Of a stretch of 32,000 bases of DNA, positions 9,832 through 22,494 are shown piece after piece. Each line of letters starts with the position of its first letter. Position 1 is the stretch's first letter. The stretch spans positions 2,280,001 to 2,312,000 of the forward strand of contig NZ_CP019633.1 of NCBI RefSeq assembly GCF_001997385.1, written 5' to 3'. The notes beneath the pieces are model-generated. The model did no database searches and was not told the DNA's origin. It was given only the letters and a program-made list of their open reading frames with translations. Source of the stretch: Sedimentisphaera cyanobacteriorum. Lineage in GTDB: Bacteria; Planctomycetota; Phycisphaerae; Sedimentisphaerales; Sedimentisphaeraceae. The translations under genes were made by a program, and so were the position numbers.

Positions 9832-9867
9832 TTCGCAAATTCGCACTCCGTTTCGCCAAATCTGAGG
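9832..9867 (+). promoter_or_regulatory. Degenerate copy of the tandem TTCGYAAAATGGGG motif (site D)
   Basis: TTCGCAAATTCGCA, then TTCGCCAAATCTGAGG, with half-sites starting 20 nt apart. It ends 95 nt upstream of the pseudopilin-like gene at 9962. Only a partial match to the consensus of sites A-C. Confidence 0.25.
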
Positions 9868-9961
9868 TTACAAATTGGTGGAAAAAATGTTAAAATTGGC
9901 GTTTAAAAACCTTGCTTTTGAGTTATAATAGCCTTTATGTTTATTGTTGAAAGGTGAAAAA

Positions 9962-10837
9962 ATGAAAAAGGCTTTTACTTTAATAGAGCTTTTGGTTGTT
10001 ATATCAATCATAGCCCTTTTGATGGCTATCCTTATGCCCGCTTTGGGCAGGGCCAGAGAGCAGGCTAAAAACGTTGTATGCAAGACGAATATGCACGGCG
10101 CTGTTGTCGGTCTGAACGCATACCACGCCGACAACTACGACTACCCCAAGCACCCCTGCGCTCACGTGCGTCCGAATGCCCTCGCAAGAAACAAAACCTA
10201 CAACCCCCAGGACCCCGAAAACAGCGATACTTACACCTACAAGTATCTGAAGGGCTATATTGATGATGTGGGCGTGTTTAACTGTCCTCTTTCGGGATTT
10301 GATGAAACAGATATTGCTATGAATGCAGGCGGCGAGCCGCTTACATATCAGGAGGCCTACCAGAACAAAAACGACTGGTTCCATAAGTCGAACAACAAAA
10401 TCCTGAACTGCTCATACGCACTGTACTGGAACTACAAGCCGTATAAAAACAATCCGGGCGGGTTTGAAGGCCCGGGCAAGAGCTCCCAGTCCCAGTCCAG
10501 CCTGCTGATAAGCGACTACTTCGCATACTACAATCAGCTCAGGCCGTCCCAGAGCTGGGTTTGCACTCACAAGCTCGAGGGCGGCTCGCTTACCCGTTCA
10601 GACGGAATGCCCTATTACGCCCTGAAAGATGAAAGCCCCGGGCAGTGGGTTACTACTGATTCGGAGGGATTTACAGTGCTGAAAGAAAACTCGCCTTTTG
10701 ATGATATCAAGCTAAACTGCGGCTACACCGACGGGAGCGTGAAATCTATCAAGGGCAGCGATACTATGAGGCAGAGGGCATACGCAGGCGCGGATGCATG
10801 GTGCGAGCACTTTATGCCCTCAAAGAGGCGCTGGTAG
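9962..10837 (+). CDS. Prepilin-type N-terminal cleavage/methylation domain protein (pseudopilin-like, DUF1559-like)
   Basis: MKKAFTLIELLVVISIIALLMAILMPALGRAREQAK is a class III signal with the conserved Glu at +5. The C-terminal CGYTDGSVKSI resembles a degenerate H-X9-DG motif. The ATG at 9962 is preceded by AGGTGA, so I prefer it to the TTG at 9944. Confidence 0.85.
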   Translation: MKKAFTLIELLVVISIIALLMAILMPALGRAREQAKNVVCKTNMHGAVVGLNAYHADNYDYPKHPCAHVRPNALARNKTYNPQDPENSDTYTYKYLKGYIDDVGVFNCPLSGFDETDIAMNAGGEPLTYQEAYQNKNDWFHKSNNKILNCSYALYWNYKPYKNNPGGFEGPGKSSQSQSSLLISDYFAYYNQLRPSQSWVCTHKLEGGSLTRSDGMPYYALKDESPGQWVTTDSEGFTVLKENSPFDDIKLNCGYTDGSVKSIKGSDTMRQRAYAGADAWCEHFMPSKRRW

Positions 10838-10914
10838 GATTATAAGCCACCCGATTTATCTCTCAAGCAGCTGAAAAACAAATAATCCTATTGAGGCAGG
10901 ATTTGCAGCTGTCT

Positions 10915-10950
10915 TTCGCAAAATGGGGAATTGTTTTTCGCAAATTAGGG
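10915..10950 (+). promoter_or_regulatory. Tandem direct-repeat motif (site A)
   Basis: TTCGCAAAATGGGG-aattgttt-TTCGCAAATTAGGG, followed by TTGT. It ends 91 nt upstream of the Tat-FAD oxidoreductase start. Confidence 0.5.
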
Positions 10951-11040
10951 TTGTGCCTTTGAAGTTCGCCATTATATTAGAGGCCTGTTATTAAACAGCA
11001 AATTGTTTATTTTAACTGAATCTCAGCGGGAAAAACGGAT

Positions 11041-12837
11041 ATGATAAAAAGACGGGATTTCTTAAAGGCCTCAGCCGCAGCGGGCATTTCATTGAATTTC
11101 AGCCAGCCAGCCGCTTTTGGCGATTCTGATAAAAGCTCACTTCTGATTGAAGCAGTGCAGTTTGACAATACTGGCGGATGGAAGATTGATACGCAGTTCC
11201 ACAACACTCTGGGCTTCAGTTATTTGCTTGCCCACGGGATGGGCAGCCCTGTGAAAAACGCTCAAACAAAAGCCCTATTTAAGAAAGCCGGTTTGTATAA
11301 TGTCTGGGTGCATACAAAAGACTGGTGCCCGGGAAATTGGCACGCACCGGGCAGATTTAAGCTTAAGGTTGGCGGGGAATACCTAAACGAGATTTTCGGA
11401 AATAAACCCGGATGGAAATGGCATTACGGCGGGAAGATTCAAATCAGGCAGGGCGAAGCTCTTGTGGAGCTGGAAGACCTTACCGGCTTTGACGGGCGGT
11501 GTTCGGCGGTGTATTTCACTCAGGATGATAATGAAACGCCTCCGAATGATAGAGAAAAACTGCTCCGCTGGAGGCTTAATAAGAATGCAGGAGCTAAGGC
11601 GGCTGAAAAGAAAAAGTTTGATGTTGTTATAGCAGGCGGCGGTATAAGCGGCTGCGCAACGGCATTGGCCGCTGAATCTCAAGGCCTGAAGACTGCGTTA
11701 ATTCACAACAGACCCGTGCTGGGCGGGAACGCCAGCGGGGAGATTCGTGTTCATACATTAGGCCTCCACGGGAATGCCGGAGATATATTAAGCAAGATCG
11801 ATACCGAGCATTATCCCAACGGCTCAGAGAAGGCTTTTCACGATGACCGAAAACGCACGAAAAATATGAATGAAGCCGAAGGGGTATCCCAGTTTCTTAT
11901 GCACACGCTGATTTCAGCAGATTCACAAGGGGGCGAAATAAAATCAATTCAGGCCTTCGAGCATTTAACAGGCAGAAGAACGATTTTCGAGGCAGAGGTT
12001 TTCATAGACTGCACAGGCGATGGATGGCTCGGCCGGCTTGCAGGGGCAGATTGGGTTTACGGCCGCGAGCCGGAATCTAAATACAGCGAAGGCTGGGATA
12101 AGCACGGCGATTTGTGGTGTCCTGAGAAGGCGGATAATCGGGTGATGGGGACGAGCGTTTTATGGAACACTGAAAAGGGAAGCGAAGAAGTTCAGTTTCC
12201 GGAAGTTCCTTGGGCAATGCCCGTTGCAAAAGACCACACCTCTCCCAGCGGCGAGTGGTACTGGGAATATTCGCATAACAGCCTCAATCAGATCAGCGAT
12301 GCAGAACAGATACGAGACCATTTCTTCCGAGCTATATACGGCACATATTCAAACACAATCAAGCAGGACAAGCACAAAAAAAGAAGGCTCAAGTGGGTTG
12401 GGTACAATGCGGGGAAACGAGAATCTGCACGCCTGCTCGGGGATTATATCTACACGGGCAATGATGCGTTTGAGTCGAAAAAATTCAATGATGCGGTTGC
12501 GGTGGAGAAGCGCTCGATTGATGTTCATTATCAGCGATCGCTCACCGGCTCTAAGTATGATTTTCTCTCTGAGGCAATCTACCGAAAGCCTAAAGAGAAA
12601 TTTTATTACATCCCCTTCCGCAGTCTTTATTCTCGGAATATAGGCAATCTTATGATGGCAGGCAGATGCTTCAGCTGCTCGCACATCGGCCTTGGCGGGC
12701 CGCGTGTTATGAACACCTGCGGACAGATGGGGGCTGCTGCGGGATTTGCTGCTGCTCTGTGCAGAAAATTCGATAAATCCCCAAGGCAGGTTGGCAAAGA
12801 CCATATCGGAGAGCTTAGGAAGCTGTGCAAATTTTAG
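11041..12837 (+). CDS. Tat-exported FAD-dependent oxidoreductase with an N-terminal beta-sandwich-like domain
   Basis: Twin-arginine signal MIKRRDFLKASAAAGISL. A ~190-aa N-terminal domain precedes the dinucleotide-binding motif DVVIAGGGISGCATALAAE and RPVLGGNASGEIRVH. This is a paralog of the 20086 gene (shared GKRES.R..GDY and AGR..S.SH blocks). Confidence 0.8.
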   Translation: MIKRRDFLKASAAAGISLNFSQPAAFGDSDKSSLLIEAVQFDNTGGWKIDTQFHNTLGFSYLLAHGMGSPVKNAQTKALFKKAGLYNVWVHTKDWCPGNWHAPGRFKLKVGGEYLNEIFGNKPGWKWHYGGKIQIRQGEALVELEDLTGFDGRCSAVYFTQDDNETPPNDREKLLRWRLNKNAGAKAAEKKKFDVVIAGGGISGCATALAAESQGLKTALIHNRPVLGGNASGEIRVHTLGLHGNAGDILSKIDTEHYPNGSEKAFHDDRKRTKNMNEAEGVSQFLMHTLISADSQGGEIKSIQAFEHLTGRRTIFEAEVFIDCTGDGWLGRLAGADWVYGREPESKYSEGWDKHGDLWCPEKADNRVMGTSVLWNTEKGSEEVQFPEVPWAMPVAKDHTSPSGEWYWEYSHNSLNQISDAEQIRDHFFRAIYGTYSNTIKQDKHKKRRLKWVGYNAGKRESARLLGDYIYTGNDAFESKKFNDAVAVEKRSIDVHYQRSLTGSKYDFLSEAIYRKPKEKFYYIPFRSLYSRNIGNLMMAGRCFSCSHIGLGGPRVMNTCGQMGAAAGFAAALCRKFDKSPRQVGKDHIGELRKLCKF

Positions 12838-12967
12838 CCTTCAATACTCTTCTCGATACACGTATATAGCCGGCAAAGCCTGCACACTTTCTCATTCTGT
12901 TTGAATCTAACACTTCCTGCGGGGTATCCCTGCTGAGTTGATACTCCAAGTTTGCGCTTTTTGATTC

Positions 12968-13002
12968 TTCGTAAAATGGTGAATTATTTTCGCAAAATGG
13001 GG
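12968..13002 (+). promoter_or_regulatory. Tandem direct-repeat motif (site B)
   Basis: TTCGTAAAATGGTG-aattatt-TTCGCAAAATGGGG, followed by TTTT. It ends 295 nt upstream of the PEP-CTERM gene start. Confidence 0.55.
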
Positions 13003-13296
13003 TTTTATTACAAGAAAATTATGCAATCATATTATTTAAGTTTTGCTGAATGATTAAAGAAAGGTTTAGAGCTATAAACAATAATCCGGAAATTGAAAAA
13101 ATAGGTGTCAGGATAAATGGAAGTTCGGGTTGTTGTCAGCCTTTTATGTTAAAAGCCCTTAGTGATATTCCCTTTCACCGCAAATCTGAGCGGTAAGAAG
13201 CTGATGAACGCCCTTTCTGAATGCGTTCGGTGCGGGAATTTTTGTGTTTCTCATTAAAGAGTATTTTGTTATGTTAAATTTTTAAGGTGTTAGATT

Positions 13297-14184
13297 ATGA
13301 TGACGAAAAAGCTTTTCAAAAATTGTTTTCTGATTGTTAGTTTCATTTCTTTGAGTATTTGCGGCAGAGCTTACGGCTTGGCTGATGTTATTGAAACATT
13401 TAATGACTATCAGACCGGTGATTTGCGTGATACTTCCGGCAAAGGCACTGGATTTTCGAGTGAGGCTGATACATGGGAGGCTAATACAAGCCATTACAAA
13501 GCGAGGGAGGATGATCTATCTGCGCCGGCGGAAACCGGCTATGCCCTCGAGCAGAGCGGAACTGCTCAGAGCGTTCAAGGGCAGTCAACTAACCAGCGCC
13601 GTCAAAGCAGAAGACTTGATCACGAAGAGCTTGTAGGTACAAGCTGGTTTTCCTTTTTAGTGAAGAACACTAAATCTACTCAGATTGCAGGAATTGATTT
13701 TTACGACGGTTCATATTACGACAGCTACCATGTGGATAAGGCAAGGGAAATTTCCCTGCGGGGGACGAGCCTTTATGTTGAAGGAAGCGGCGGTACAGGT
13801 GAAAGCGGTATTGACGTAAGCAGCAAGACCTCTCTGAATGAAAACGCTTTAATACTCGGGAAATTTATGCCAAATGGCCTTTCCGAATCTGCTAATCTTC
13901 AGGTTTGGGTGAACCCTGATGTTTCTAATGACGCCGCCGGCCTTGGCACGCCCGATTTCGAGCAGCTCAGCGACCTTGGCTGGGGCAATATGGACAGGCT
14001 GAAAAATCTCGGCCTTCTCGCCTATGATACCGAAGGCAGCTGGGGCGGCCAGATTGATTCTTTGTATATCAGCAATGAAACTTCGGCTTTTCAGGATGTT
14101 ACCGGTGTACCTGAACCTGCCGCTTTAACCCTCTTAGCTCTGGGCGGTCTGGCGTTAAGGAGAAGGCAGAAACTTCGATCTTAA
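13297..14184 (+). CDS. Secreted PEP-CTERM-anchored protein carrying the shared N-terminal module
   Basis: Signal peptide MMTKKLFKNCFLIVSFISLSICGRAYG. The C-terminus VPEPAALTLLALGGLALRRRQKLRS is a PEP motif, a hydrophobic helix and a basic tail. The body is ~60% identical by eye to residues ~28-270 of the 17675 product. Confidence 0.8.
   Translation: MMTKKLFKNCFLIVSFISLSICGRAYGLADVIETFNDYQTGDLRDTSGKGTGFSSEADTWEANTSHYKAREDDLSAPAETGYALEQSGTAQSVQGQSTNQRRQSRRLDHEELVGTSWFSFLVKNTKSTQIAGIDFYDGSYYDSYHVDKAREISLRGTSLYVEGSGGTGESGIDVSSKTSLNENALILGKFMPNGLSESANLQVWVNPDVSNDAAGLGTPDFEQLSDLGWGNMDRLKNLGLLAYDTEGSWGGQIDSLYISNETSAFQDVTGVPEPAALTLLALGGLALRRRQKLRS
13939..13986 (+). repeat. 48-nt stretch identical to 18311..18358
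   Basis: GGCCTTGGCACGCCCGATTTCGAGCAGCTCAGCGACCTTGGCTGGGGC occurs in both paralogs and encodes GLGTPDFEQLSDLGWG. Confidence 0.9.
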
Positions 14185-14352
14185 GGAATTGGAATCCTTC
14201 ATTATTATTTTCCATATTTCCAAAACTGATTTGCTTGAGAATTAACGGAGAATAATAAAAAACATTTAAGGCTGCTTGTTAAAATGCTTTCAATCTTTTT
14301 TGCATGAATAGATTTACCAACCTGTAACTAAAAAAGCATTTCTTTTTCGGTC

Positions 14353-14387
14353 TTCGTAAAATGGGGAATTATTTTCGCAATTTGGGG
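14353..14387 (+). promoter_or_regulatory. Tandem direct-repeat motif (site C)
   Basis: TTCGTAAAATGGGG-aattatt-TTCGCAATTTGGGG, followed by TTGT. It ends 108 nt upstream of the GTG start at 14495. Confidence 0.55.
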
Positions 14388-14494
14388 TTGTAGAAAAAAG
14401 TGATTATGCGAAGATACACTCGACGTATATTTGAATTGTTATCGCAGCGGCTTCAAAGCCGAGAATTAAAATTAAATTCTTAAAAGGAGAAATT

Positions 14495-15307
14495 GTGAAA
14501 AATAGGAAAAATCGAACTTCCGGTTTTACTCTTATTGAACTGCTTGTTGTTATTTCCATCATCGCTTTGCTCATGTCAATTCTTATGCCTGCTCTAAATA
14601 AGGCCCGCGAACAGGCCCGCAATGTTGTATGCCAGAGCAATGTAAAGCAGTGGGGGCTTATTTTCAGTATGTACACCGATGACAGCGACGGATATTTCCC
14701 CGCAGATTGTCATAAAGATGACGGCAGATGGACGTGGTTTTTATCAATGAAGCCCTATTATGCGGGCAAATTTGAGATTCTTCTGTGTCCGACAACCAAG
14801 GCCGCTCCGGAAGACAGAGGGGGGAGGCTGAATAACCGCTGGCAGTGGAACGTCCGCTGGTGGACCCCGAACGTTTTTGAGACAGAGATGCTGGAAGACA
14901 GAGATGCCGAAGAGCTTGGAGGCAGCTATGGACAGAACTGGTGGGTTACGAGCAATGATTCATGGACTGCTACCTACCCTACAGAGAATAAATTCAAGCG
15001 GGTTGACAATGTTCAAAAGCCCTCTTCTGTTCCTGTAATCGGAGACTGCGGTTCGTTTGTGGTTCGCCCTACCAGATTTGCAGATCCTCCCGAAAGCGAC
15101 GGTGATTACTCTTATGAAAGCTCTAATGAGATGAAGCGTGTTTGCACGAATCGTCATAACAACGGCCGGGTTAACTGGGTTTTCGCAGACTTTTCCGTTC
15201 AGCAGGTTAAGCTCAAAGAGCTTTGGGATATACCTTGGCACCGCAAATGGAAGCCGAGGGAAGATGAGATCGAATGGCCGGACTGGATGCGTTCTCTGCC
15301 GGAATGA
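14495..15307 (+). CDS. Prepilin-type N-terminal cleavage/methylation domain protein (pseudopilin-like, DUF1559-like)
   Basis: GTG start preceded by AAAGGAGA. NRTSGFTLIELLVVISIIALLMSILMPALNKAREQARN has the canonical G/FTLIE cleavage site. The C-terminal HNNGRVNWVFADFSV is a divergent H-X9-DG-like motif. Confidence 0.85.
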   Translation: MKNRKNRTSGFTLIELLVVISIIALLMSILMPALNKAREQARNVVCQSNVKQWGLIFSMYTDDSDGYFPADCHKDDGRWTWFLSMKPYYAGKFEILLCPTTKAAPEDRGGRLNNRWQWNVRWWTPNVFETEMLEDRDAEELGGSYGQNWWVTSNDSWTATYPTENKFKRVDNVQKPSSVPVIGDCGSFVVRPTRFADPPESDGDYSYESSNEMKRVCTNRHNNGRVNWVFADFSVQQVKLKELWDIPWHRKWKPREDEIEWPDWMRSLPE

Positions 15308-15380
15308 CTGCGTTTTTAAGGCTTTTCTCTAAATCAAAGAGTATTTTTTAATGTTAAATTATTTTTTAAGGCGGAAAATT

Positions 15381-17633
15381 ATGATGAAGAAATTTTTACT
15401 GTTGATGGTTGTGTCCATTATGTGTTTGGCCGGTACTTCTCAAGCACTTTTTGTGATGGATAATTTTAATGAGCTTGATGTGGCAGAGATGCGCTGGACT
15501 GCATCCGACAGCGGCGTTGGTTTTGCCCCAGGCTCGGGCTGGCACGTTAATACCTCCACGATTCGTTTGCGGGATCGGGATCTGACAGCTCCTTCAAGTA
15601 CCAACTTCGGCTTAACCCAGACAGGAAATACACGTCTTGTTCAGGGTACTTATGAGGGCGAGCGTCAGCAGGCCCGTCAAATAGCCGAATTGATGGACGG
15701 GACAGTTTGGTTCAGCTTCTTGTACAAGCATGTTTCCGAAGGTTCCGGAGGCGGCCTTGGTTTCAACAGAAGCGGCTATTCCACAACCGCTCCGAGGGTT
15801 ATTGCTGATCAGGGCGATTTGATACTGGATTTCTCTGAGGATGAGTATGATGTAGTTTTATCCGATGTTTTGAACGCGGGAGAAACCTATCTGATTGTTG
15901 GAAGGATTGAAGTTGATGCCGGCGATAACGGCGAAGATTATGTTTCAGTTTGGCTGAATCCCGATGTAACCAATCCGGGCATGGCAGCAGCGTCTCAAAG
16001 CGGGGCAGATTTCGTAGGCGACGGCATTGATTATTTGTGTCTGCCCAGTTTTTACACAGGCAGTATAAACGTCGGCGGGGAGATAGATATGGTGTATGCA
16101 AGCAATGATGCTGATGCATACAAAGATGTTACCGGAGCGGATTATCCATCGTATGCCTACAGCCCAACCCCTTCAAATGGGCAGAATGGCGTTGGAGAAG
16201 TAACAGATTCACAGGTTGAGCTTACCCTTTCCTGGAAAACCGGCGCCGACCCTGATGGAGTGGAAGATTATGACCCGAGGATAAAGAAGCATTATGTTTA
16301 TCTAAACAGTGCGGATGAAATAGACCCCAACAACCCCGACCTGACACTGGTTGAAACAGTTTCAGTAACAGGTGCAGATGCCTCATCAAGCGTGCTTACC
16401 CTCGATTTAAACGGCCAATACTACTGGCTTGTTGAAGAGGGGCTGGAAGACGGACAGGGCGGAGTTTATCCTGCCGGGGATGAAAACAACTTTCAAGGAG
16501 AGCTTTGGTCTTTCCAAACAAAGGAAAGTGTTCCGGTAATCGAAGGCCAGCCTGAGGATCAGGTTGTGTTTGAGGGCGAAACAGCAAACTTTGAAATAAC
16601 AGCCGCTTCTGAAAAGCCAATAACGAATTATCAGTGGTATAAATCCACTGATGATACTAACCAAACACCTGCTGATGATACAGCTCTTGATTCAGGAGCT
16701 TCTCTTAATTTGATTGCTATTGAGAATGCAGCGGCTTCAGATGAGGGATACTACTATTGCGTGGTTTCAAACAGCGCAGGTGATAAAGCCTCGCAAACTG
16801 CAGTTTTAGGCCTCAAAAAGATTCTTGCACACTGGACTATGAACCAAAGCGATGTGCTTGGAGGTGAACTGCTGGATGTGCAAAGCGGAAATAATGCTGT
16901 AATTCAGGGAACGCCGGAATTTGCACAAGGGGCTGACGGCGCAGAAAACGGCGCTCTGGTTATCTCTGAAGACGTGTATGCTTCAGCTCCAGGGACTATA
17001 GACCCGCCATCTGATTTCGGAATGATGAGCTTGAGCGTCTGGGTAAACTGGCACGGGCCGTTAGGCTCTAATTACCAGAGGATTATCTCTAAATCCACAG
17101 ACAGCTGGTCGAGCACAAATTCCTCATGGACACTCGGTAATCAGGCTGGACAGCAGGGAAGCGGAAACATAAGCTACTATTCATACAATGCAGCGGGAAC
17201 CTCTTCAGCAGAGATGGTTAATGATCAGGCCGAATCCCCCGATACTTTCCAGCATTATGTCTTGGTTTATGACGGGCAGGAAGCTAAGACCTATTTTGAC
17301 GGACAGCTTGCTGCTGTGGATGAAATTGACGTGGCTGATTTCTACAATCAAGCCGCTGCTGCTGCGCCAATTGCAATTGGTGCCGGATACGCAGATGACG
17401 GGGCTCACCGATTCAACGGTGCACTGGATGATATTCGGATCTACAACTACAGCCTCTCTGCAGATGAGGTAGGAGACCTCTATTATGATGTAACTGGAGA
17501 GCCGGCATGTGTTTATCCAGTTGAATACGGCGATTATGACAACGACTGCGATGTAGATGTTGCAGATTTGATGATTTTTATTATGAACGGTTGGCTTGAC
17601 TGCGGTTTGTATCCAGAAGAAGGCTGCATGTAA
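15381..17633 (+). CDS. Secreted multidomain surface protein: shared N-module, Fn3-like, Ig-like, LamG (Laminin_G_3-like), 4-Cys dockerin-like tail
   Basis: Signal MMKKFLLLMVVSIMCLAGTSQA. The Ig-like block is YQWYK...DEGYYYCVVSNSAGD. The LamG-type ending is FNGALDDIRIYNYSLSADEVGDLYYDV. The tail is GDYDNDCDVDVADLMIFIMNGWLDCGLYPEEGCM. I prefer the start at 15381 because the leader is conserved with the 13297 gene, where the equivalent upstream ATG hits a stop after 4 codons. Confidence 0.8.
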   Translation: MMKKFLLLMVVSIMCLAGTSQALFVMDNFNELDVAEMRWTASDSGVGFAPGSGWHVNTSTIRLRDRDLTAPSSTNFGLTQTGNTRLVQGTYEGERQQARQIAELMDGTVWFSFLYKHVSEGSGGGLGFNRSGYSTTAPRVIADQGDLILDFSEDEYDVVLSDVLNAGETYLIVGRIEVDAGDNGEDYVSVWLNPDVTNPGMAAASQSGADFVGDGIDYLCLPSFYTGSINVGGEIDMVYASNDADAYKDVTGADYPSYAYSPTPSNGQNGVGEVTDSQVELTLSWKTGADPDGVEDYDPRIKKHYVYLNSADEIDPNNPDLTLVETVSVTGADASSSVLTLDLNGQYYWLVEEGLEDGQGGVYPAGDENNFQGELWSFQTKESVPVIEGQPEDQVVFEGETANFEITAASEKPITNYQWYKSTDDTNQTPADDTALDSGASLNLIAIENAAASDEGYYYCVVSNSAGDKASQTAVLGLKKILAHWTMNQSDVLGGELLDVQSGNNAVIQGTPEFAQGADGAENGALVISEDVYASAPGTIDPPSDFGMMSLSVWVNWHGPLGSNYQRIISKSTDSWSSTNSSWTLGNQAGQQGSGNISYYSYNAAGTSSAEMVNDQAESPDTFQHYVLVYDGQEAKTYFDGQLAAVDEIDVADFYNQAAAAAPIAIGAGYADDGAHRFNGALDDIRIYNYSLSADEVGDLYYDVTGEPACVYPVEYGDYDNDCDVDVADLMIFIMNGWLDCGLYPEEGCM

Positions 17634-17674
17634 ATTAAGCTGATGAGTAAAATCAATACAGAAAGGAAATTATT

Positions 17675-19954
17675 ATGAATAAAAAGCATACGAAAAAGTG
17701 TTTCCTCTTTTGCGCAGTCTTGTGTCTGGTTCTTTCGGGAACTCTTTACGGGCAGGCGGATGTAATAGCGACATTTAATGATATGACCACAGGCGGTATG
17801 CGGGAGAACGACGGTCAGCCGGCCGGTACTGGTGTTGGCTTTTCAACAGATTACTGGCAGGCAAATACATCTCACTGCAAAGTAAGGGAAGATAACCTTG
17901 CTGCACCTTCAAGCACCGGTTATTCGATTGTGCAGACTGGCACAGCTCAGTGCGTGCAGGTGCAGTCGATACACCAGAGAAGGCAGTATCGCGAGCTGAT
18001 ACATGAAAATCTCGTTGGCAGCTGCTGGATATCATTTCTTGCTAAAAATACAAAATCAACGAATGTTACCGGAATTGATTTTGATGAATATGTCAGCTAC
18101 TGGGTAAATAAAGACAGGGAAATCTCGCTTCGCGGGACAAACCTGTATGTTCAAGGCAGCGGGGGCACCGGCTCCGGCGGGATCGACGTTAGCAGTAAAT
18201 ACGCAATTGGCGAGACAGCCTTGGTTCTCTGCAAGTTTATGCCGAATGCGTATTCATCTCCTGCCCACCTGCAGGTTTGGGTGAATCCAAATACTGCAAA
18301 CGGTCCGGACGGCCTTGGCACGCCCGATTTCGAGCAGCTCAGCGACCTTGGCTGGGGCGAAATGGACAGGCTGAAAGGTCTCGGCCTGCTAGCCTATGAT
18401 ACCGACGACCACTGGGGCGGCCTGATAGATGCTGTATATATCAGCCAAGGTGATGATGCATTCTACGATGTGGTTGGCGTAAATCTCAATGCTTATTCCC
18501 CAAGTCCTGAAAGCGGAGAAGAAGGCGTGGGTGTTAAGAATAACGGTAATGTCGATGTTACCCTCGAATGGAAAACCGGAAGAGATGACAGCACCTCTGA
18601 CCCGCAGCCGTATAACCCTGATATCAAAAAACATTATCTTTATATGAGCAGCGGCGTGGAAGGTGATACTGACCTCGAACTTAAAGCCTCCCTTGATGTA
18701 ACCGGCCTTAATGAATCCTATTCGACAACTCTCAATCTTGACGGAAAATACTACTGGCTTATCGAAGAAGGCCTTGATGACGGCACAGGTTCAGCGAATC
18801 CTCCGGGCGACCCGAACAACTATGTAAGCGCAGTTTGGGAGTTTGAAACATTAAAGAGTGTGCCTGTGGTAACAGCTCAGCCGGAAGATGTGTTTGTTGG
18901 TATTGGAGATACTGCTGAGCTGAGCGTTAGCGTGTCCACTATGTCAAGCGAAAGCTATCAGTGGTATAAATCTCTGGATGATGCCGTTGATACTGGCGAA
19001 GATGATTCATTAATAGCCGGCGCTGATTCAAACACCTTAACAGTGTACTCTGCAGCTGTTGAGGATGAGGCATACTATTACTGCGAAATTACCAACAGCA
19101 GCGGCACAACCGTTTCTGATACAGCATCTCTGGGAGTAAAGAGACTGATGGCTAAGTATTCAATGGATCAGGCCGATTATGATGGAAGCTCCTATCTTGA
19201 CTCAAGCCCTGAAGATGGAACTGCACATGATGCACAGCTGGTAGGCGAAGTGGATGTCCAGTTTGTAACAGGAGCTGACGGCACGCCAAACGGTGCTGTT
19301 AAGATTGATCCTAACAGTGTTGCAAATGCAGGCACTTGGAATCCCTCAGAATTCAGCAATGAGCTTACTGCTGCTTTCTGGGTTGAATGGGACGGCGTAA
19401 GCGATGTTCGTCAGGGCTATCTGGGCAAATCGGTTGACTTGAATGCCGGAAATATGTGGTTTATCCGCGGTCAGTATGTCAGCAGTACAAGTATGAAGTT
19501 GATGAGAAACGGCAGCTACGGGCCTGCAGCAGGACCTTTGACTGATGATAACCAGTGGCAGTTTGTAGCGTTTACCGTCTCAGATAATAACGCAAACTGC
19601 TATGTGAATGGAATTAACAGCGGCACTTCCGATTTTACTTTAGGCTCAGACCCTGAAGACCTTGCAGCCCCTATCTGGATAGGGCGATTTAGTGAACTCT
19701 CGCCTGAAAGGATTGCGAACGCTTCTATGGATGATGTTCGAATCTACAATTACGCCCTGAGCCCGGAAGAGATTGCTCAGCTGTATTACGATGTATCAGG
19801 AGAGCCGATTTGCATAGACCCCCCAGACCCCGCTTACGATTTGAGCGGACCTGAAGGTATGCCGGACTGTAAGGTTGATATGTATGATTTTGTTCAAATC
19901 GCAAAAAAATGGTTTGAATGCGGCCTTTATCCGGCCTCCTTATGCTTTGAATGA
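17675..19954 (+). CDS. Secreted multidomain surface protein, paralog of 15381 (shared N-module, Fn3-like, Ig-like, LamG, 4-Cys tail)
   Basis: Signal MNKKHTKKCFLFCAVLCLVLSGTLYG. The Ig-like block is YQWYK...DEAYYYCEITNSSGT. The LamG-type ending is MDDVRIYNYALSPEEIAQLYYDV. The tail is DCKVDMYDFVQIAKKWFECGLYPASLCFE. Confidence 0.8.
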   Translation: MNKKHTKKCFLFCAVLCLVLSGTLYGQADVIATFNDMTTGGMRENDGQPAGTGVGFSTDYWQANTSHCKVREDNLAAPSSTGYSIVQTGTAQCVQVQSIHQRRQYRELIHENLVGSCWISFLAKNTKSTNVTGIDFDEYVSYWVNKDREISLRGTNLYVQGSGGTGSGGIDVSSKYAIGETALVLCKFMPNAYSSPAHLQVWVNPNTANGPDGLGTPDFEQLSDLGWGEMDRLKGLGLLAYDTDDHWGGLIDAVYISQGDDAFYDVVGVNLNAYSPSPESGEEGVGVKNNGNVDVTLEWKTGRDDSTSDPQPYNPDIKKHYLYMSSGVEGDTDLELKASLDVTGLNESYSTTLNLDGKYYWLIEEGLDDGTGSANPPGDPNNYVSAVWEFETLKSVPVVTAQPEDVFVGIGDTAELSVSVSTMSSESYQWYKSLDDAVDTGEDDSLIAGADSNTLTVYSAAVEDEAYYYCEITNSSGTTVSDTASLGVKRLMAKYSMDQADYDGSSYLDSSPEDGTAHDAQLVGEVDVQFVTGADGTPNGAVKIDPNSVANAGTWNPSEFSNELTAAFWVEWDGVSDVRQGYLGKSVDLNAGNMWFIRGQYVSSTSMKLMRNGSYGPAAGPLTDDNQWQFVAFTVSDNNANCYVNGINSGTSDFTLGSDPEDLAAPIWIGRFSELSPERIANASMDDVRIYNYALSPEEIAQLYYDVSGEPICIDPPDPAYDLSGPEGMPDCKVDMYDFVQIAKKWFECGLYPASLCFE
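18311..18358 (+). repeat. 48-nt stretch identical to 13939..13986
   Basis: Same 48-mer as in the PEP-CTERM paralog. Identity remains about 90% over 112 nt (18311..18422 against 13939..14050). Confidence 0.9.
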
Positions 19955-20085: not shown

Positions 20086-22494
20086 TTGATTAATATAGAA
20101 CAGCCGGCCGATAAACGAGAGTTTAGGCAGGAAAATATTCAATGCGACCTTGCAGTTATCGGCGGCGGACTTGCCGGCGTATGCGCAGCTGTTACCGCTG
20201 CCCGAGAGGGCTTGAGCGTTGCCTTGGTTCAGGACAGGCCGGTTCTCGGGGGGAATGCATCCAGCGAAGTTCGTCTTTGGGCACTTGGAGCCACCTCTCA
20301 TAAAGGCAATAACAATCGCTGGTCTCGTGAGGGCGGGGTGATCGATGAAATACTTGTTGAAAATATATATCGCAACCCCGAGGGGAATCCTGTAATCTTC
20401 GATACTGTGATCCTTGAGAAGGTAGTCGAAGAGCCGAATATAAATTTACTGCTGAATACTTCGGCTGTTAAAATAACTAAAAAAGAAAATCAAAAAATTG
20501 AATCAGTAACAGCATTCTGTTCACAGAATTCAATTTTATACAATATTTCAGCTCCTTTGTTTTGCGATGCCTCCGGGGACGGTGTAACAGCGTATCTTGC
20601 GGGTGCAGAATTTCGAATGGGCGCCGAGAGCAGAGAAGAATTTGATGAAAAATTCGCACCTTCATTAGAGTACGGCGCATTGATGGGTCATTCAATCTTT
20701 TTCTATTCAAAGGATACCGGCAAACCCGTTCGCTTTGTACCTCCAAGCTATGCATTGAAGGATATAAAACAAATACCTCGATATCGCAATTTTGGGAAAA
20801 ATCATTATGGCTGTCAGCTTTGGTGGGTAGAATACGGCGGGCGTCTTGATACGGTGCACGATACAGAGAAAATCAAATGGGAGCTGTGGAAGATTGTTTA
20901 CGGGATATGGGATTATATAAAAAATTCCGGCAGCTTTCCGGGCACTGAAAATATGACTCTTGAGTGGGTAGGAATGATTCCCGGCAAGCGTGAAAGCCGG
21001 CGTTTTATCGGCGACTATATACTTGTACAAAATGATATAGTGCGTCAGAAAGAGCATTACGATGCTGTTTCCTACGGCGGCTGGGCAATCGATCTGCACC
21101 CGGCAGACGGGATTTACAGCAGACTGCCCGGGTGCGACCAATGGCATTCCAAGGGCGTTTATCAGATTCCATACCGGTGTATGTACAGCAAGGATATTGA
21201 AAACCTTTTCCTTGCAGGCAGGATTATGAGCACTTCTCACGTAGCAAACGGGTCCACCCGCGTTATGCTTACATGTGCGCATAACGCTCAGGCAGTTGGA
21301 ATGGCTTCAGTTTTGTGCGTTCGTGATAAATGCCTGCCGAGGGATGTCGCTGAGCCTGAGAAGGTTTCTCTGCTCCAGCAGAAACTTCTCAAATGCGGGC
21401 AGTACATCCCGGGCATTAAACTTGAAGACCCCGAAGATATAGCTAAAGAGGCCGCAATCAGCGTTTCCAGCGAATTGAAGCTTTCGAAACTTGATAATAA
21501 AGGCCCGCTGCTTACTTTACACGATTCAATGGCAATGCTCTTTCCGGCAAGAAAAGGCAGTAATATTTTTGTCTCATTTGAAATTTTTGCAGATAAAGAA
21601 ACTGAACTGATTGTCGAGCTCAAATCAAGCAGCAGGATTGGTAATTTTACTCCGGATCTGCTTCTGGAAAGGAAAAAGATTTCCATTTCCCCCAAAACTG
21701 CATCTGAAAGCTGCAGAGCTAAAGAAAAGGTGAAGTTGTATTCAGGTGCTGACGGGGGTGTTAATTCAGGGGCAGCTGCTTTTACGCAAAAGTTTAATCA
21801 AACCTCCGAGGACTCTTTCTCTCAGGGCAATATTGAAATTGAATTCGAGTCTATACTGGAAACTGATCAGTACGTGTTTATCTGCCTCCGGAAAAATCCC
21901 GATATCCATATCCGCTGCAGCAGTCAGCATATTACCGGGGTTCTGTCTGTAGTTTCAAAGGGTAATTTTAGAGTCAGCAACGGAAATATACAAAAGCCGG
22001 ATAAGGATATTGGCGTTGATGAAATGGAATTCTGGATTCCGCAGCGCTGGCCGAACTGTCATCTGCTCTCGTGCAGATTTAAATCTGCGATTGAAGCTTT
22101 CGGCCCTGATAATTTGACTAACGGATTTGCCAGGCCTTTCAAAGGGGCGAATGCCTGGGTTGCAGATTTTGATGACCGTTCACCGGAGGCTGTCCTTGAA
22201 TGGGAGAAACCAAAATCTATTAAAAAAATTGAACTGGCTTTTGATACCGATTTCGACCATCCAATGGAATCGGTTTTTATGGGACACACTTATCACACAG
22301 TACCTTACTGTGTTAGGGAATACCTTATATCAGATTCACAGGGCAGGGTGGTTTACGAATGCAGGGAAAACCATAAGACTCGTAATGTTATAACATTTGA
22401 TGAGCCTGTAACCACTGATAAGCTTATAATTCAGCTTCAAAGGCCTGATGTGAATATACCTGCTGCGCTGTTTGAAGTGCGGTGTTATGAATAG
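20086..22494 (+). CDS. Cytosolic FAD-dependent oxidoreductase with a C-terminal discoidin-like (galactose-binding-like) domain
   Basis: TTG start 10 nt after GAGG, with no signal peptide. DLAVIGGGLAGVCAAVTAARE and RPVLGGNASSEVRLW lie at the extreme N-terminus, so the start must be non-ATG. The C-terminal ~125 aa end in ALFEVRCYE, which resembles an F5/8-type-C domain. Confidence 0.8.
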   Translation: MINIEQPADKREFRQENIQCDLAVIGGGLAGVCAAVTAAREGLSVALVQDRPVLGGNASSEVRLWALGATSHKGNNNRWSREGGVIDEILVENIYRNPEGNPVIFDTVILEKVVEEPNINLLLNTSAVKITKKENQKIESVTAFCSQNSILYNISAPLFCDASGDGVTAYLAGAEFRMGAESREEFDEKFAPSLEYGALMGHSIFFYSKDTGKPVRFVPPSYALKDIKQIPRYRNFGKNHYGCQLWWVEYGGRLDTVHDTEKIKWELWKIVYGIWDYIKNSGSFPGTENMTLEWVGMIPGKRESRRFIGDYILVQNDIVRQKEHYDAVSYGGWAIDLHPADGIYSRLPGCDQWHSKGVYQIPYRCMYSKDIENLFLAGRIMSTSHVANGSTRVMLTCAHNAQAVGMASVLCVRDKCLPRDVAEPEKVSLLQQKLLKCGQYIPGIKLEDPEDIAKEAAISVSSELKLSKLDNKGPLLTLHDSMAMLFPARKGSNIFVSFEIFADKETELIVELKSSSRIGNFTPDLLLERKKISISPKTASESCRAKEKVKLYSGADGGVNSGAAAFTQKFNQTSEDSFSQGNIEIEFESILETDQYVFICLRKNPDIHIRCSSQHITGVLSVVSKGNFRVSNGNIQKPDKDIGVDEMEFWIPQRWPNCHLLSCRFKSAIEAFGPDNLTNGFARPFKGANAWVADFDDRSPEAVLEWEKPKSIKKIELAFDTDFDHPMESVFMGHTYHTVPYCVREYLISDSQGRVVYECRENHKTRNVITFDEPVTTDKLIIQLQRPDVNIPAALFEVRCYE

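Follow-up and report, generated by a model that had tools for sequence, protein, structure and literature searches.

The window analyzed here, a 32,000-nt stretch of the Sedimentisphaera cyanobacteriorum genome, contains two pseudopilin-like genes (herein pilA and pilB) among genes for secreted LamG-type proteins, a PEP-CTERM protein, FAD-oxidoreductases, a symporter, and a multimodular carbohydrate-active enzyme (CAZyme). The features described in an earlier note on this DNA were all found at or near the places it gave. The genes and regulatory elements are as follows, with the supporting evidence in parentheses.

9832..9869, + strand: degenerate copy of a tandem motif (TTCGCAAATTCGCA...TTTCGCCAAATCTGAGGTT), upstream of pilA (motif search)
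9962..10837, + strand: pilA, pseudopilin-like protein, 291 aa from ATG 9962, with an upstream TTG at 9944 (class III signal peptide, Pfam)
10915..10952, + strand: slightly variant motif copy (TTCGCAAAATGGGG-N8-TTCGCAAATTAGGGTT), upstream of the TAT-FAD-oxidoreductase (motif search)
11041..12837, + strand: FAD_oxidored (PF12831) protein, 598 aa, twin-arginine signal (Pfam, relatives)
12968..13004, + strand: perfect motif copy, ~290 nt upstream of the PEP-CTERM gene (motif search)
13297..14184, + strand: PEP-CTERM protein, 295 aa, stand-alone copy of the LamG-protein N-domain (Pfam, alignment)
14353..14389, + strand: perfect motif copy, 105 nt upstream of pilB (motif search)
14495..15307, + strand: pilB, pseudopilin-like protein, 270 aa, G/FTLIELL with Glu+5 (Pfam, family profile, AF2)
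15381..17633, + strand: LamG1, secreted 750-aa protein, in agreement with the NCBI record (Pfam, AF2)
17675..19954, + strand: LamG2, 759-aa paralog with the LamG1 architecture (Pfam, alignment)
20086..22494, + strand: second FAD_oxidored (PF12831) protein, 802 aa (Pfam; 801 aa and position kept in relatives)
22590..24335, + strand: sodium:solute symporter (SSF), 581 aa (Pfam; kept in the relatives' operon)
24340..27201, + strand: secreted 953-aa protein (939-aa, or ~940-aa, counterpart kept in relatives)
27212..32000, + strand: multimodular CAZyme continuing past the window end, with GH97 (N, catalytic, and C domains), CBM35/CBM6, a sub-threshold Dockerin_1 loop, and GH16

Three satellite units (pilA; the TAT-FAD-oxidoreductase; the PEP-CTERM protein) accompany a long operon with the order pilB, LamG1, LamG2, FAD-oxidoreductase, Na+/solute symporter, 953-aa protein, and GH97-CBM-GH16. 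The gaps are 41 to 131 nt, and no terminator-like site was seen between pilB and LamG1; together with the single common upstream motif, this makes cotranscription plausible. Signal peptides are not evident in the second FAD_oxidored protein, and the 953-aa protein has no Pfam family, its sole match being weak and GH127-like. The operon (pseudopilin-LamG-LamG-FAD-oxidoreductase-Na+/solute symporter-940-aa protein-GH97) and its motif are kept in relatives at 42 to 58% identity and in a different genomic context; there, the counterpart of the TAT-FAD-oxidoreductase is a 606-aa gene that is divergently transcribed, with an inverted motif copy in front.

The 37-nt motif is a tandem direct repeat (TTCGYAAAWTGGGG twice, 21 to 22 nt apart) that precedes four transcription units. 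As none of 100 shuffled sequences gave two matches, its occurrence is beyond chance, and it resembles an operator common to the four units. The proposal that each prepilin-type gene follows a shared motif stands for pilB, which has a perfect copy, and is weakened for pilA, which has only the degenerate one.

Both pilA (MKKA/FTLIELLVV; Pfam N_methyl E = 5.8e-7) and pilB (...RTSG/FTLIELLVV; E = 5.1e-8) encode a class III signal peptide (short basic leader, G or A at -1, F at +1, Glu at +5), with N_methyl and TIGR02532 above cut-offs, in keeping with their description as prepilin-type genes. The C termini are indeed degenerate relative to the H-X9-DG motif: that of pilB (RHNNGRVNWVFADFSV) reads H-X10-D (H-X10-D-F), that of pilA (DDIKLNCGYTDGSV) contains TDGSV and no His, and neither protein matched the H-X9-DG model (TIGR04294) at E ≤ 0.01 in an NCBIfam scan. 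Assignment to DUF1559 (PF07596) across the globular part was considered and rejected: pilB scores 23.4 bits against a cut-off of 23.3 but covers only positions 2 through 50 of the 268-position profile, and pilA has no Pfam match to it. The pilB family (consensus RHxGxxNxxFxDxSV...WPDWM; ~260 to 300 aa) is very large, taking in 7,726 of 8,000 scored candidates at E ≤ 1e-3. The two window proteins have only the α1 helix in common (59% over 63 aa), their heads being unrelated; full-length relatives of pilA are pseudopilins adjoining LamG cassettes in two related loci (L078 and L016), and both head types recur beside such cassettes in other genomes. The AF2 model of pilB (pLDDT 90) has a 51-residue α1 helix (residues 13 through 63) and a small β-sheet head. 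Compared with the PDB, the whole α1 (mature residues 1 through 61) of the family profile matches filament-forming pilins, with Thermus thermophilus PilA4 at E = 1.4e-14, and also geopilin, PilE1, Myxococcus xanthus PilA, and GspG (1e-5). Pilins are the sole PDB matches of pilB, and comparison of the AF2 model with the PDB found no solved relative of the head. Six-gene tandem arrays of pseudopilin genes also exist without CAZymes.

Neither the Pfam scan nor reading of translations revealed T2SS or pilus machinery genes among the large open reading frames (ORFs) of the window (BamD-like, LptE, DsbD, LOG-like, and flavodoxin-like proteins were scanned; SecA and FtsH were judged from their translations alone), and the isolation of the prepilin-type genes from such genes therefore holds within that set. 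The window has no prepilin peptidase, assembly ATPase, platform, or exosortase gene; GspD, GspE, and GspF are absent from it and from every inspected related cassette; and no pair of SusC-like TonB-dependent transporter and SusD-like protein was found among its ORFs or the called genes of related loci.

LamG1 begins 73 nt after pilB, and the two ~750-aa secreted paralogs reported there are present and share 36% identity. LamG1 comprises a signal peptide, an all-β N-domain without Pfam family (residues ~25 through 245), an Fn3-like sandwich (260 through 380), an Ig I-set domain, Laminin_G_3, and a tail with four Cys and a single F-hand. Of the proposed domain types, LamG (Laminin_G_3, 68 and 72 bits) and Ig (Ig_3/I-set, 36 to 44 bits) exceed Pfam thresholds in both paralogs; the Fn3-like segment has no Pfam match but is a confident β-sandwich in the AF2 model. 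The fold of modeled LamG1 matches AbnA domain 4 (TM 0.73), a trans-sialidase lectin domain, and BoNT Hc, all lectin or carbohydrate-binding jelly rolls, and the N-terminal slot of relatives variously holds F5/8 type C, PA14, LamG, CBM96-like, or CBM4/9-like modules and, in one case, a pectate lyase. These fold matches and known CBM types support the earlier reading of the LamG proteins as binding-type, and we regard both as putative glycan-binding proteins.

In 153 of 192 cases the tail lies at the C terminus. Among 35 tails, the four Cys are invariant or nearly so and flank one dockerin-type calcium loop (D-x-N/D-x-D-x-x-x-D) with a following amphipathic helix. A profile of the 35 has solved dockerins as best PDB matches (2y3n_B, E = 2.8e-4; 5nrm_B; 5nrk_B), followed by EF-hands, while the tails alone have no Pfam match at E ≤ 10. 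The dockerin-like description consequently stands for the single calcium-loop/helix motif and conserved Cys and not for a two-repeat dockerin; a true Dockerin type I (PF00404) was rejected, the tail having a single repeat rather than two ~22-residue F-hands and falling below the Pfam threshold. Among the scanned proteins, none was assigned to a cohesin family.

The PEP-CTERM protein is, as the earlier note held, a third paralog reduced to the N-module: it shares 62% identity over 272 aa with the N-domain of LamG2 (residues 1 through 269), the genes are 79% identical at the nucleotide level along a stretch of 228 nt, and its C terminus (VPEPAALTLLALGGLALRRRQKLRS) has the PEP motif, hydrophobic helix, and basic cluster (Pfam PEP-CTERM, 20.5 bits versus a cut-off of 20.7; E = 4.9e-4). 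In a stricter test across 83 related loci, 25 of 31 small PEP-CTERM proteins match a LamG-protein N-domain, the best match lying within the protein's own locus for 16 of the 31 (35 to 87% identity). This gives a pairing rule, of which we found no description in the literature, whereby the PEP-CTERM passenger is usually a copy of the N-domain of a LamG protein in its own locus.

The comparison set of 83 loci comes from 46 genomes. Tandem LamG genes occur in 55 cassettes, an ECF sigma/anti-sigma pair in 41, a pseudopilin in 32, and other tail-bearing proteins in 24. Pseudopilin-like genes account for 29 of 326 genes at offsets 1 to 2 from LamG clusters versus 6 of 387 further away (odds ratio 6.2, or ~6-fold; Fisher P = 5.6e-6, an optimistic value because the loci are phylogenetically non-independent). 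Of the 46 genomes or samples, 22 show the linkage, and a reverse search starting from pseudopilins also reaches neighbors of Ig/LamG proteins. With this enrichment and the order pilB-LamG-LamG kept in relatives, the expected co-occurrence of the two families is borne out, and a functional linkage of pseudopilins with LamG cassettes is supported. The pseudopilin is nevertheless not obligatory, as 61% of cassettes lack one within 10 kb; where present (39%), its position varies and the heads are unrelated. More constant partners, both unused in the earlier model, are the PEP-CTERM N-domain copy and the ECF sigma/FecR-NPCBM anti-sigma pair, the latter being a commoner LamG partner than the pseudopilin. 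In the Sedimentisphaera lineage, the LamG pair occurs without sigma and anti-sigma genes and under another cis-element. We class the locus as a polysaccharide utilization locus (PUL)-like cassette type of Sedimentisphaerales, for which we likewise found no published description.

We give about an even chance to an explanation in which the region, where pilin-like genes adjoin those for secreted lectin-type proteins, is a polysaccharide-utilization regulon of S. cyanobacteriorum that supplies binding proteins, an anchored module copy, and pseudopilins aiding outer-membrane transfer or retention. LamG1 and LamG2 would be exported by Sec and bind glycans, with specificity set by an N-terminal jelly-roll module that differs from locus to locus. 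The Fn3-like, Ig, and LamG domains would form a constant chassis, closed by a tail of one dockerin-type Ca2+ loop and helix stapled by disulfides; attachment or sorting is the probable role of this four-Cys tail. A cell-anchored copy of the specificity module would be presented by the PEP-CTERM protein. The pseudopilin-like proteins would be substrate-induced subunits that, once processed by prepilin peptidase, join a type-IV-filament machine of T2SS/T4P-like kind whose genes lie elsewhere, most likely to help move the co-encoded tail-bearing proteins across the outer membrane or to help retain them there, for which a long retractile fiber would not be needed. The locus proteins might instead work within the enlarged periplasm, away from the surface.

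The earlier note had proposed that the pseudopilins form or prime a surface fiber that displays or retracts the LamG proteins for polysaccharide capture; in such a model, display might run through the dockerin-like tail, and retraction would draw bound polysaccharide to or into the cell. The homology of full-length α1, with Glu+5, to assembled type IV pilins and the linkage to LamG cassettes are consistent with such a fiber, and there is precedent in Streptococcus sanguinis PilC, where a pilin carries a ConA-like lectin module (PMC6497953). Planctomycete pili from crateriform structures have also been discussed as a glycan-uptake device of unknown mechanism (PMC12673574). We consider it doubtful: retraction ATPase, platform, and secretin are absent from the locus and inspected cassettes, most cassettes have no pseudopilin, those that do have a single gene and not a major-plus-minor pilin set, and the pilB head has no solved relative to suggest a docking surface. 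Another possibility, to our minds distinctly unlikely, makes the LamG/Ig/tail proteins mainly sensors rather than capture devices, whose N-module binds the inducing glycan while the chassis signals to an envelope system (the FecR-NPCBM anti-sigma factor in relatives, a presumed motif-binding regulator in S. cyanobacteriorum), the pseudopilin being peripheral. The sigma and anti-sigma genes do accompany LamG genes in 41 of 83 loci, usually directly upstream, and a common signaling interface would need the combination seen here, a variable N-module on a constant chassis; yet the Sedimentisphaera lineage retains the LamG pair with another cis-element and without that pair, FecR-type signaling normally requires a TonB-dependent transducer, of which none is present, and tandem duplication (two to four copies), the pectate-lyase member, and tails on large CAZymes better fit a structural or attachment role.

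That the pseudopilins never enter a filament and, anchored by α1 in the inner membrane, act in the periplasm, for example by escorting or binding imported oligosaccharides for the symporter or by chaperoning Cys-rich exported proteins, seems very unlikely. The Pfam name of DUF1559 ("SBP_bac_10"), the SSF symporter kept in the operon and also found near another pseudopilin gene, and the uptake of macromolecules into an enlarged periplasm by planctomycetes (PMC12673574) are in its favor. The pilB model, however, has pilin-type architecture and no periplasmic-binding-protein fold, its PDB matches being pilins only, and the near invariance of the GFTLIELLVV...P α1 among thousands of family members suggests that they interact with a shared assembly machine. 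Normally, moreover, SSF transporters work without binding proteins. Least credible to us is that numerous pseudopilin genes are scattered among secreted-protein operons and that LamG adjacency is a by-product. The family is huge (in Planctopirus limnophila, DUF1559 is the largest paralog group, with 68 paralogs; PMC10632474), its genes also lie in tandem arrays and next to secreted proteins other than LamG ones, and they take up no fixed place in a cassette. Such scatter sits poorly with a six-fold enrichment at offsets 1 to 2 over the flanks of the same loci, with an order kept across ~50% sequence divergence and a changed genomic context, and with the recurrence of both pilA-type and pilB-type heads beside LamG cassettes elsewhere.

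Among known systems, the DUF1559/H-X9-DG proteins of Planctomycetota, Verrucomicrobiota, and Lentisphaerota resemble pilA and pilB in their class III signal peptide and GFTLIELLVV sequence, and the pilB family in length (~260 to 300 aa), massive paralog expansion, and, in its consensus, a C-terminal H-x9-D-x-S-V-type motif; they differ in that the pilB match stops within the first ~50 profile positions and pilA has none, and for the preferential placement in LamG/PEP-CTERM glycan cassettes shown here our literature search turned up no earlier report. T2SS pseudopilins (GspG-K) and type IV pilins share with pilB the processing motif, Glu+5, and a ~50-residue α1 homologous to PilA4, PilE, and GspG, whereas the window genes lie away from ATPase, platform, secretin, and peptidase genes, and the pilB-type head is larger, with no solved relative. 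Modular pilins such as S. sanguinis PilC likewise associate a pilin with a ConA/LamG-type lectin module, grafted there onto the pilin and here a separate Sec-exported polypeptide.

Like a cellulosome dockerin, the tail is a short C-terminal Ca2+-loop-plus-helix (F-hand) common to many secreted carbohydrate-binding or -active proteins of these loci, and its profile matches solved type I dockerins; unlike one, it has one repeat instead of two, four flanking conserved Cys, and a sub-threshold Dockerin_1 score, in a diderm PVC host with no cohesin among the scanned proteins. The cassettes parallel Bacteroidota PULs in being substrate-specific loci with a regulator (ECF sigma/FecR-type anti-sigma in relatives), tandemly duplicated β-sandwich putative glycan-binding proteins, CAZymes, and a transporter. 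SusC/SusD, a TonB-dependent transporter, and lipoprotein anchoring are lacking; the window has pseudopilin genes, an inner-membrane SSF symporter, and predicted PEP-CTERM anchoring with paired soluble and anchored copies of the specificity module. The 13297..14184 protein resembles PEP-CTERM/exosortase proteins in its VPEP motif, hydrophobic helix, Arg-rich end, secretion, and glycan-related locus; it is set apart by a Pfam score just below threshold, a window free of exosortase genes, and a passenger that is a copy of the neighboring LamG protein's N-domain.

The window comes from Sedimentisphaera cyanobacteriorum (Phycisphaerae); the LamG1, pilB, and PEP-CTERM proteins listed below each match an NCBI protein of that species at 100%. 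Every credible gene in the window has + orientation, and 31 of the 32 1-kb segments across 1-32000 show positive GC skew; both are consistent with a long co-oriented leading-strand block. Housekeeping genes lie 5' of the glycan-related genes: SecA and FtsH were recognized from translations alone, and BamD-like, LptE, DsbD, LOG-like, and flavodoxin-like proteins by Pfam matches. The glycan-related block begins at ∼9.8 kb and comprises the following features.

9832: 37-nt tandem repeat (the motif), degenerate copy
9962-10837, + strand: pilA, pseudopilin-like gene
10915: motif, slightly variant copy
11041-12837, + strand: PF12831 "FAD dependent oxidoreductase" with a twin-arginine signal (TAT-FAD oxidoreductase)
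12968: motif, perfect copy
13297-14184, + strand: PEP-CTERM protein
14353: motif, perfect copy
14495-15307, + strand: pilB, pseudopilin-like gene
15381-17633, + strand: LamG1, secreted protein
17675-19954, + strand: LamG2, secreted paralog of LamG1
20086-22494, + strand: second PF12831 protein, 802 aa with a ∼370-aa C-terminal extension
24340-27201, + strand: secreted 953-aa protein
27212-32000, + strand: giant enzyme running past the window end

Recurrence of the motif is far above chance expectation, and its copies precede four units: pilA, the TAT-FAD oxidoreductase gene, the PEP-CTERM gene, and the pilB operon. The earlier note had described a motif shared by the two pseudopilin genes; both indeed have a copy (that of pilA degenerate), but the motif is not specific to them, as the oxidoreductase and PEP-CTERM units have the motif too. 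From pilB onward the intergenic gaps are 73, 41, 131, 95, 4, and 10 nt, and no terminator-like site was found between pilB and LamG1; together with conserved gene order in relatives, these features point to a single operon that extends from 14495 past 32000 and whose visible end is the GH97-CBM35/6-GH16 enzyme. Homologs of LamG1 at 42 to 53% identity belong to operons with their genes in the same order: pseudopilin (275 aa, 58% identity to pilB), LamG, LamG, FAD_oxidored (801 aa), a 580-aa protein, SSF, a 939-aa protein, and GH97. These operons adjoin other housekeeping genes (Obg, pantothenate kinase) and keep the motif 5' of the pseudopilin gene, with an inverted copy 5' of a divergent FAD-oxidoreductase operon. 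Between two divergent motif copies, the related loci L001 (7900-8920) and L003 (5650-6624) contain small ORFs of 58 and 40 aa with an inverted duplication of ∼30 nt on either side (…TCTACAAACCCTCGGGGTTCAGGACTAAGC… / …GCCTTAGTCCTGACTCCGAGGGTTTGTAGA…), and an rve-type integrase gene lies near the L001 region; this regulatory-region insert looks like a mobile-element remnant.

The two PF12831 proteins are conserved members of this glycan operon, with counterparts in the related loci L001 (5586-7406 and 14669-17074), L005 (8242-11031), and L090 (8870-11068); in relatives, such proteins have a Golvesin_C domain or are encoded next to the pseudopilin gene. The 953-aa protein matched no Pfam or NCBIfam family and has only a weak GH127-like stretch (residues 453-546); relatives keep it in the corresponding operon slot as a gene of 939 aa (L003, 18499-21318), which makes it a candidate uncharacterized glycoside hydrolase or lyase. 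In the giant enzyme a single polypeptide joins GH97, CBM35/CBM6, and GH16 with dockerin-like loops at residues ∼912-933 and 1113-1139; in the relatives, GH97 has a gene of its own.

LamG1 and LamG2 have signal peptides and match Ig_3/I-set and Laminin_G_3 above Pfam thresholds. They had been described as ∼750-aa secreted paralogs with Fn3-like, Ig, and LamG domains, and the Ig and LamG assignments stand; neither the N-domain nor the "Fn3-like" domain matched a Pfam family, and only six homologs of the PEP-CTERM protein were found, so that assignment of the N-domain to a known family was rejected; both domains are confident β structures in the AF2 model of LamG1 (mean pLDDT 79; N-domain ∼85-95). 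A start at 15381 fits the NCBI record (750 aa), the homolog alignment, and the leader duplicated from the PEP-CTERM gene. The model matches jelly rolls of lectin and carbohydrate-binding type (AbnA GH43 domain 4, the trans-sialidase lectin domain, botulinum Hc, and neurexin LNS). In distant relatives the Fn3-like, Ig, and LamG domains and the tail are constant, whereas the N-terminal ∼200-300 aa vary; ten sampled relatives have F5/8 type C, PA14, Laminin_G_3, weak CBM96 and CBM4/9 matches, pectate lyase, or nothing known in this slot. The variable CBM types, the constant chassis, and the fold matches support a putative glycan-recognition module on a constant chassis. In one family member among loci L010-L088 the N-terminal slot is occupied by a catalytic domain, Pectate_lyase_4, with the Fn3-like motif after it, so the chassis can carry enzymes besides binding modules. 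Identity of the LamG proteins as fimbrial subunits of the TafC type, a component of haloarchaeal Tat-fimbriae, was rejected (NCBIfam, 44 bits against a cutoff of 410, LamG domain only). An estimate of family size from a 1.84-billion-protein library was uninformative, its matches being dominated by giant multi-Ig/LamG proteins.

The PEP-CTERM protein is 62% identical to the LamG2 N-domain and ends in VPEP, a hydrophobic helix, and RRR, bearing out its description as a third paralog that keeps the N-module alone. Its leader, ribosome-binding site, and first codons (∼60 nt) are 83 to 87% identical to those of LamG1 (13253-13308 vs. 15333-15392), and its coding region is nearest LamG2 (79% nucleotide identity, 13846-14073 vs. 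18218-18445); such a mosaic points to gene conversion between these three paralogs. The arrangement recurs: a stricter C-terminal test gave 31 small PEP-CTERM proteins in the related loci, 25 of them with a match to some LamG/tail protein over its first ∼200-300 residues, and for 16 the best match is a LamG protein of the same locus (35 to 87% identity), though N-domains vary between loci. Cassettes therefore tend to hold the specificity module twice, once fused to the chassis and secreted, and once by itself on a PEP-CTERM anchor. The window obeys this pairing rule, of which we found no description in the searchable literature.

The tail has the consensus C-x8-D-x-N-G-D-C-x-V-D-L-x-D-F-A-x-x-A-x-x-W-L-x-C-G-L-Y-P-x3-C, lies at the extreme C terminus in 153 of 192 matches, and is also present on large CAZyme-like proteins. 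Solved type I dockerins are the top matches of its profile (E = 2.8e-4), with EF-hands next; the term "dockerin-like" is upheld to this extent, but the tail is a single repeat and falls under the Pfam Dockerin_1 threshold. The GH97-GH16 protein farther 3' in the operon has internal copies of the loop, one called Dockerin_1 by Pfam at a sub-threshold score.

A scan of GTDB species genomes, with ORFs called and labeled by HMMs built for the purpose, found 79 loci, very few of them outside Sedimentisphaerales, Anaerohalosphaeraceae, and other Phycisphaerae MAGs and often several to a genome. A typical cassette runs from an ECF sigma factor (∼180 aa) and a FecR-NPCBM anti-sigma factor (∼560 aa) through one to four LamG/tail proteins, with an optional PEP-CTERM protein before them and, after them, an optional PEP-CTERM protein and an optional pseudopilin, to a large tail-bearing protein or CAZyme. 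Among 83 nonredundant loci, 55 have at least two LamG genes, 41 the sigma/anti-sigma pair, 32 a pseudopilin, and 24 other tail-bearing proteins. The anti-sigma factors of L005 (1041-2726), L006 (7455-9122), L007 (8175-9875), and L090 (4024-5709) join a FecR domain to a C-terminal NPCBM/NEW2 carbohydrate-binding domain, which suggests that the anti-sigma factor may sense glycan directly, without a TonB-dependent transducer. In the Sedimentisphaera lineage the tandem motif stands in place of the sigma/anti-sigma pair, and it was not found 5' of sigma genes elsewhere. An ECF promoter was thus rejected, the motif being absent 5' of 47 ECF sigma genes in related cassettes, and we read it as a lineage-specific operator; its 21-nt phasing suggests that a dimeric activator may bind. 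No convincing sigma-70 -35/-10 pair was found around the motif. A riboswitch or structured leader 5' of the PEP-CTERM gene was also rejected (13005-13300 folds no better than shuffles, z = +1.2), and there are no Rfam matches anywhere in the window.

Both prepilin-type genes reported from the sequence are real: pilA and pilB score above threshold for N_methyl and TIGR02532 and have the processing motif with Glu+5, and their C-terminal H-X9-DG is degenerate, as the earlier note had said. Membership in DUF1559 fared less well, being marginal for pilB and negative for pilA. The two proteins have only the α1 helix in common (59% over 63 aa); the heads are unrelated. The pilB family is very large (7,726 of 8,000 scored candidates at E ≤ 1e-3, mostly full length, ∼40% identity), with a nearly invariant α1 and a C-terminal consensus RHxGxxNxxFxDxSV...WPDWM. 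The AF2 model of pilB (pLDDT 90.4, pTM 0.86) has a 51-residue α1 helix and a small sheet. A periplasmic solute-binding protein, as the Pfam name "SBP_bac_10" implies, was rejected, since the model is pilin-like and its matches are pilins only. DUF1559 outnumbers every other paralog group of P. limnophila and has no known function (PMC10632474); we found no functional study of DUF1559, H-X9-DG, or planctomycete pseudopilins in the literature searched.

Pseudopilin genes are enriched near LamG genes, a linkage that the earlier note had proposed to test. They account for 20 of 196 genes at offset 1 from the LamG/PEP-CTERM/tail cluster, 9 of 130 at offset 2, and 6 of 387 at offsets of at least 3 (offsets 1-2 vs. 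≥3: odds ratio 6.2; Fisher p = 5.6e-6, an optimistic value because the loci are mutually related), and at least one pseudopilin-LamG cassette occurs in 22 of 46 genomes or samples. Seen from the pilB side, the best homologs likewise adjoin Ig/LamG proteins; examples are S. salicampi, with pseudopilin, Ig/LamG, Ig/LamG, GH2, and a locus with ECF-LamG-pseudopilin-FAD_oxidored. The pseudopilin may lie 5' of the sigma gene, 5' of the LamG genes, or 3' of them, and pseudopilin heads are of unrelated types; pilA-type heads lie beside LamG cassettes in two other genomes (29 to 33% identity, full length). The linkage is therefore real yet facultative. Neither this enrichment nor the cassette itself was found described in the searchable literature. 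More distant pilB homologs have another large secreted protein as neighbor or belong to a tandem array of six genes. An array of this kind, at L092 (5213-10812), has six pseudopilin-like genes (259 to 306 aa) head to tail, with no CAZyme or LamG neighbor, so the family also occurs in a pure "pilin cluster" context.

The window block is well supported as a substrate-specific regulon by which glycans are recognized outside the cell or in the periplasm, depolymerized (GH97, GH16), and imported (SSF), with two PF12831 flavoproteins. Its pseudopilins would be substrate-induced subunits of a type-IV-filament machine encoded elsewhere, and would help to export or retain the co-encoded tail-bearing proteins; we give this whole explanation an about even chance. 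The pilB family profile matches the full α1 of filament-forming pilins and GspG, and S. sanguinis has a pilin with a ConA-like lectin module (PMC6497953); as the earlier note had said, no T2SS or pilus machinery gene was found within the window. Beside these observations stands that note's model, in which the pseudopilins form or prime a surface fiber that displays or retracts the binding proteins; we consider it unlikely. Foldseek with the pilB model gave weak pilin matches alone, via α1; that the pseudopilins stay in the inner membrane or periplasm, with no filament assembled, is improbable given this and the profile match. A signaling role for the LamG proteins, which share cassettes with sigma/anti-sigma pairs and their tail with CAZyme-like proteins, is rated slightly above that, as quite unlikely. 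Least probable of these is that pseudopilin and LamG genes have no specific coupling, a reading to be weighed with both the enrichment and the variable gene positions and heads.

The window locus and its 80-odd relatives provide a concrete recurrent cassette from which three testable rules follow: pseudopilin genes are overrepresented next to LamG/Ig/tail proteins; the specificity module is present in each cassette as both a soluble chassis fusion and a PEP-CTERM-anchored copy; and a single-repeat dockerin-like tail is common to binding proteins and CAZymes. Because S. cyanobacteriorum is available in culture and its genome is small, experiments on expression, fractionation, and binding are within reach. 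Even if the pseudopilins prove irrelevant, the cassette defines a Sedimentisphaerales PUL type and aids annotation of many "hypothetical" proteins.

The literature does not yet explain how planctomycetes take up macromolecules, or how they and their relatives capture polysaccharides with no system of the SusC/SusD type; pili have come up in this discussion (PMC12673574). A bolder and rather improbable reading makes the cassette the PVC equivalent of Sus: substrate-induced pseudopilins with variable heads would be loaded into a shared T2SS/T4P-like machine and, with the dockerin-like tails of co-encoded lectin-type proteins, would capture specific polysaccharides and pass them to the periplasm, the PEP-CTERM-anchored copies of the specificity module acting as cell-side receptor. 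If true, this would provide a function for the largest unexplained planctomycete paralog family and explain "selfish" glycan uptake without SusC/SusD. The components are of known kinds (pseudopilin-like DUF1559/H-X9-DG relatives, Ig/LamG, PEP-CTERM, dockerin-like loops, and ECF/FecR systems), and we rate the cassette as a PUL-type system with its own surface-protein logic.
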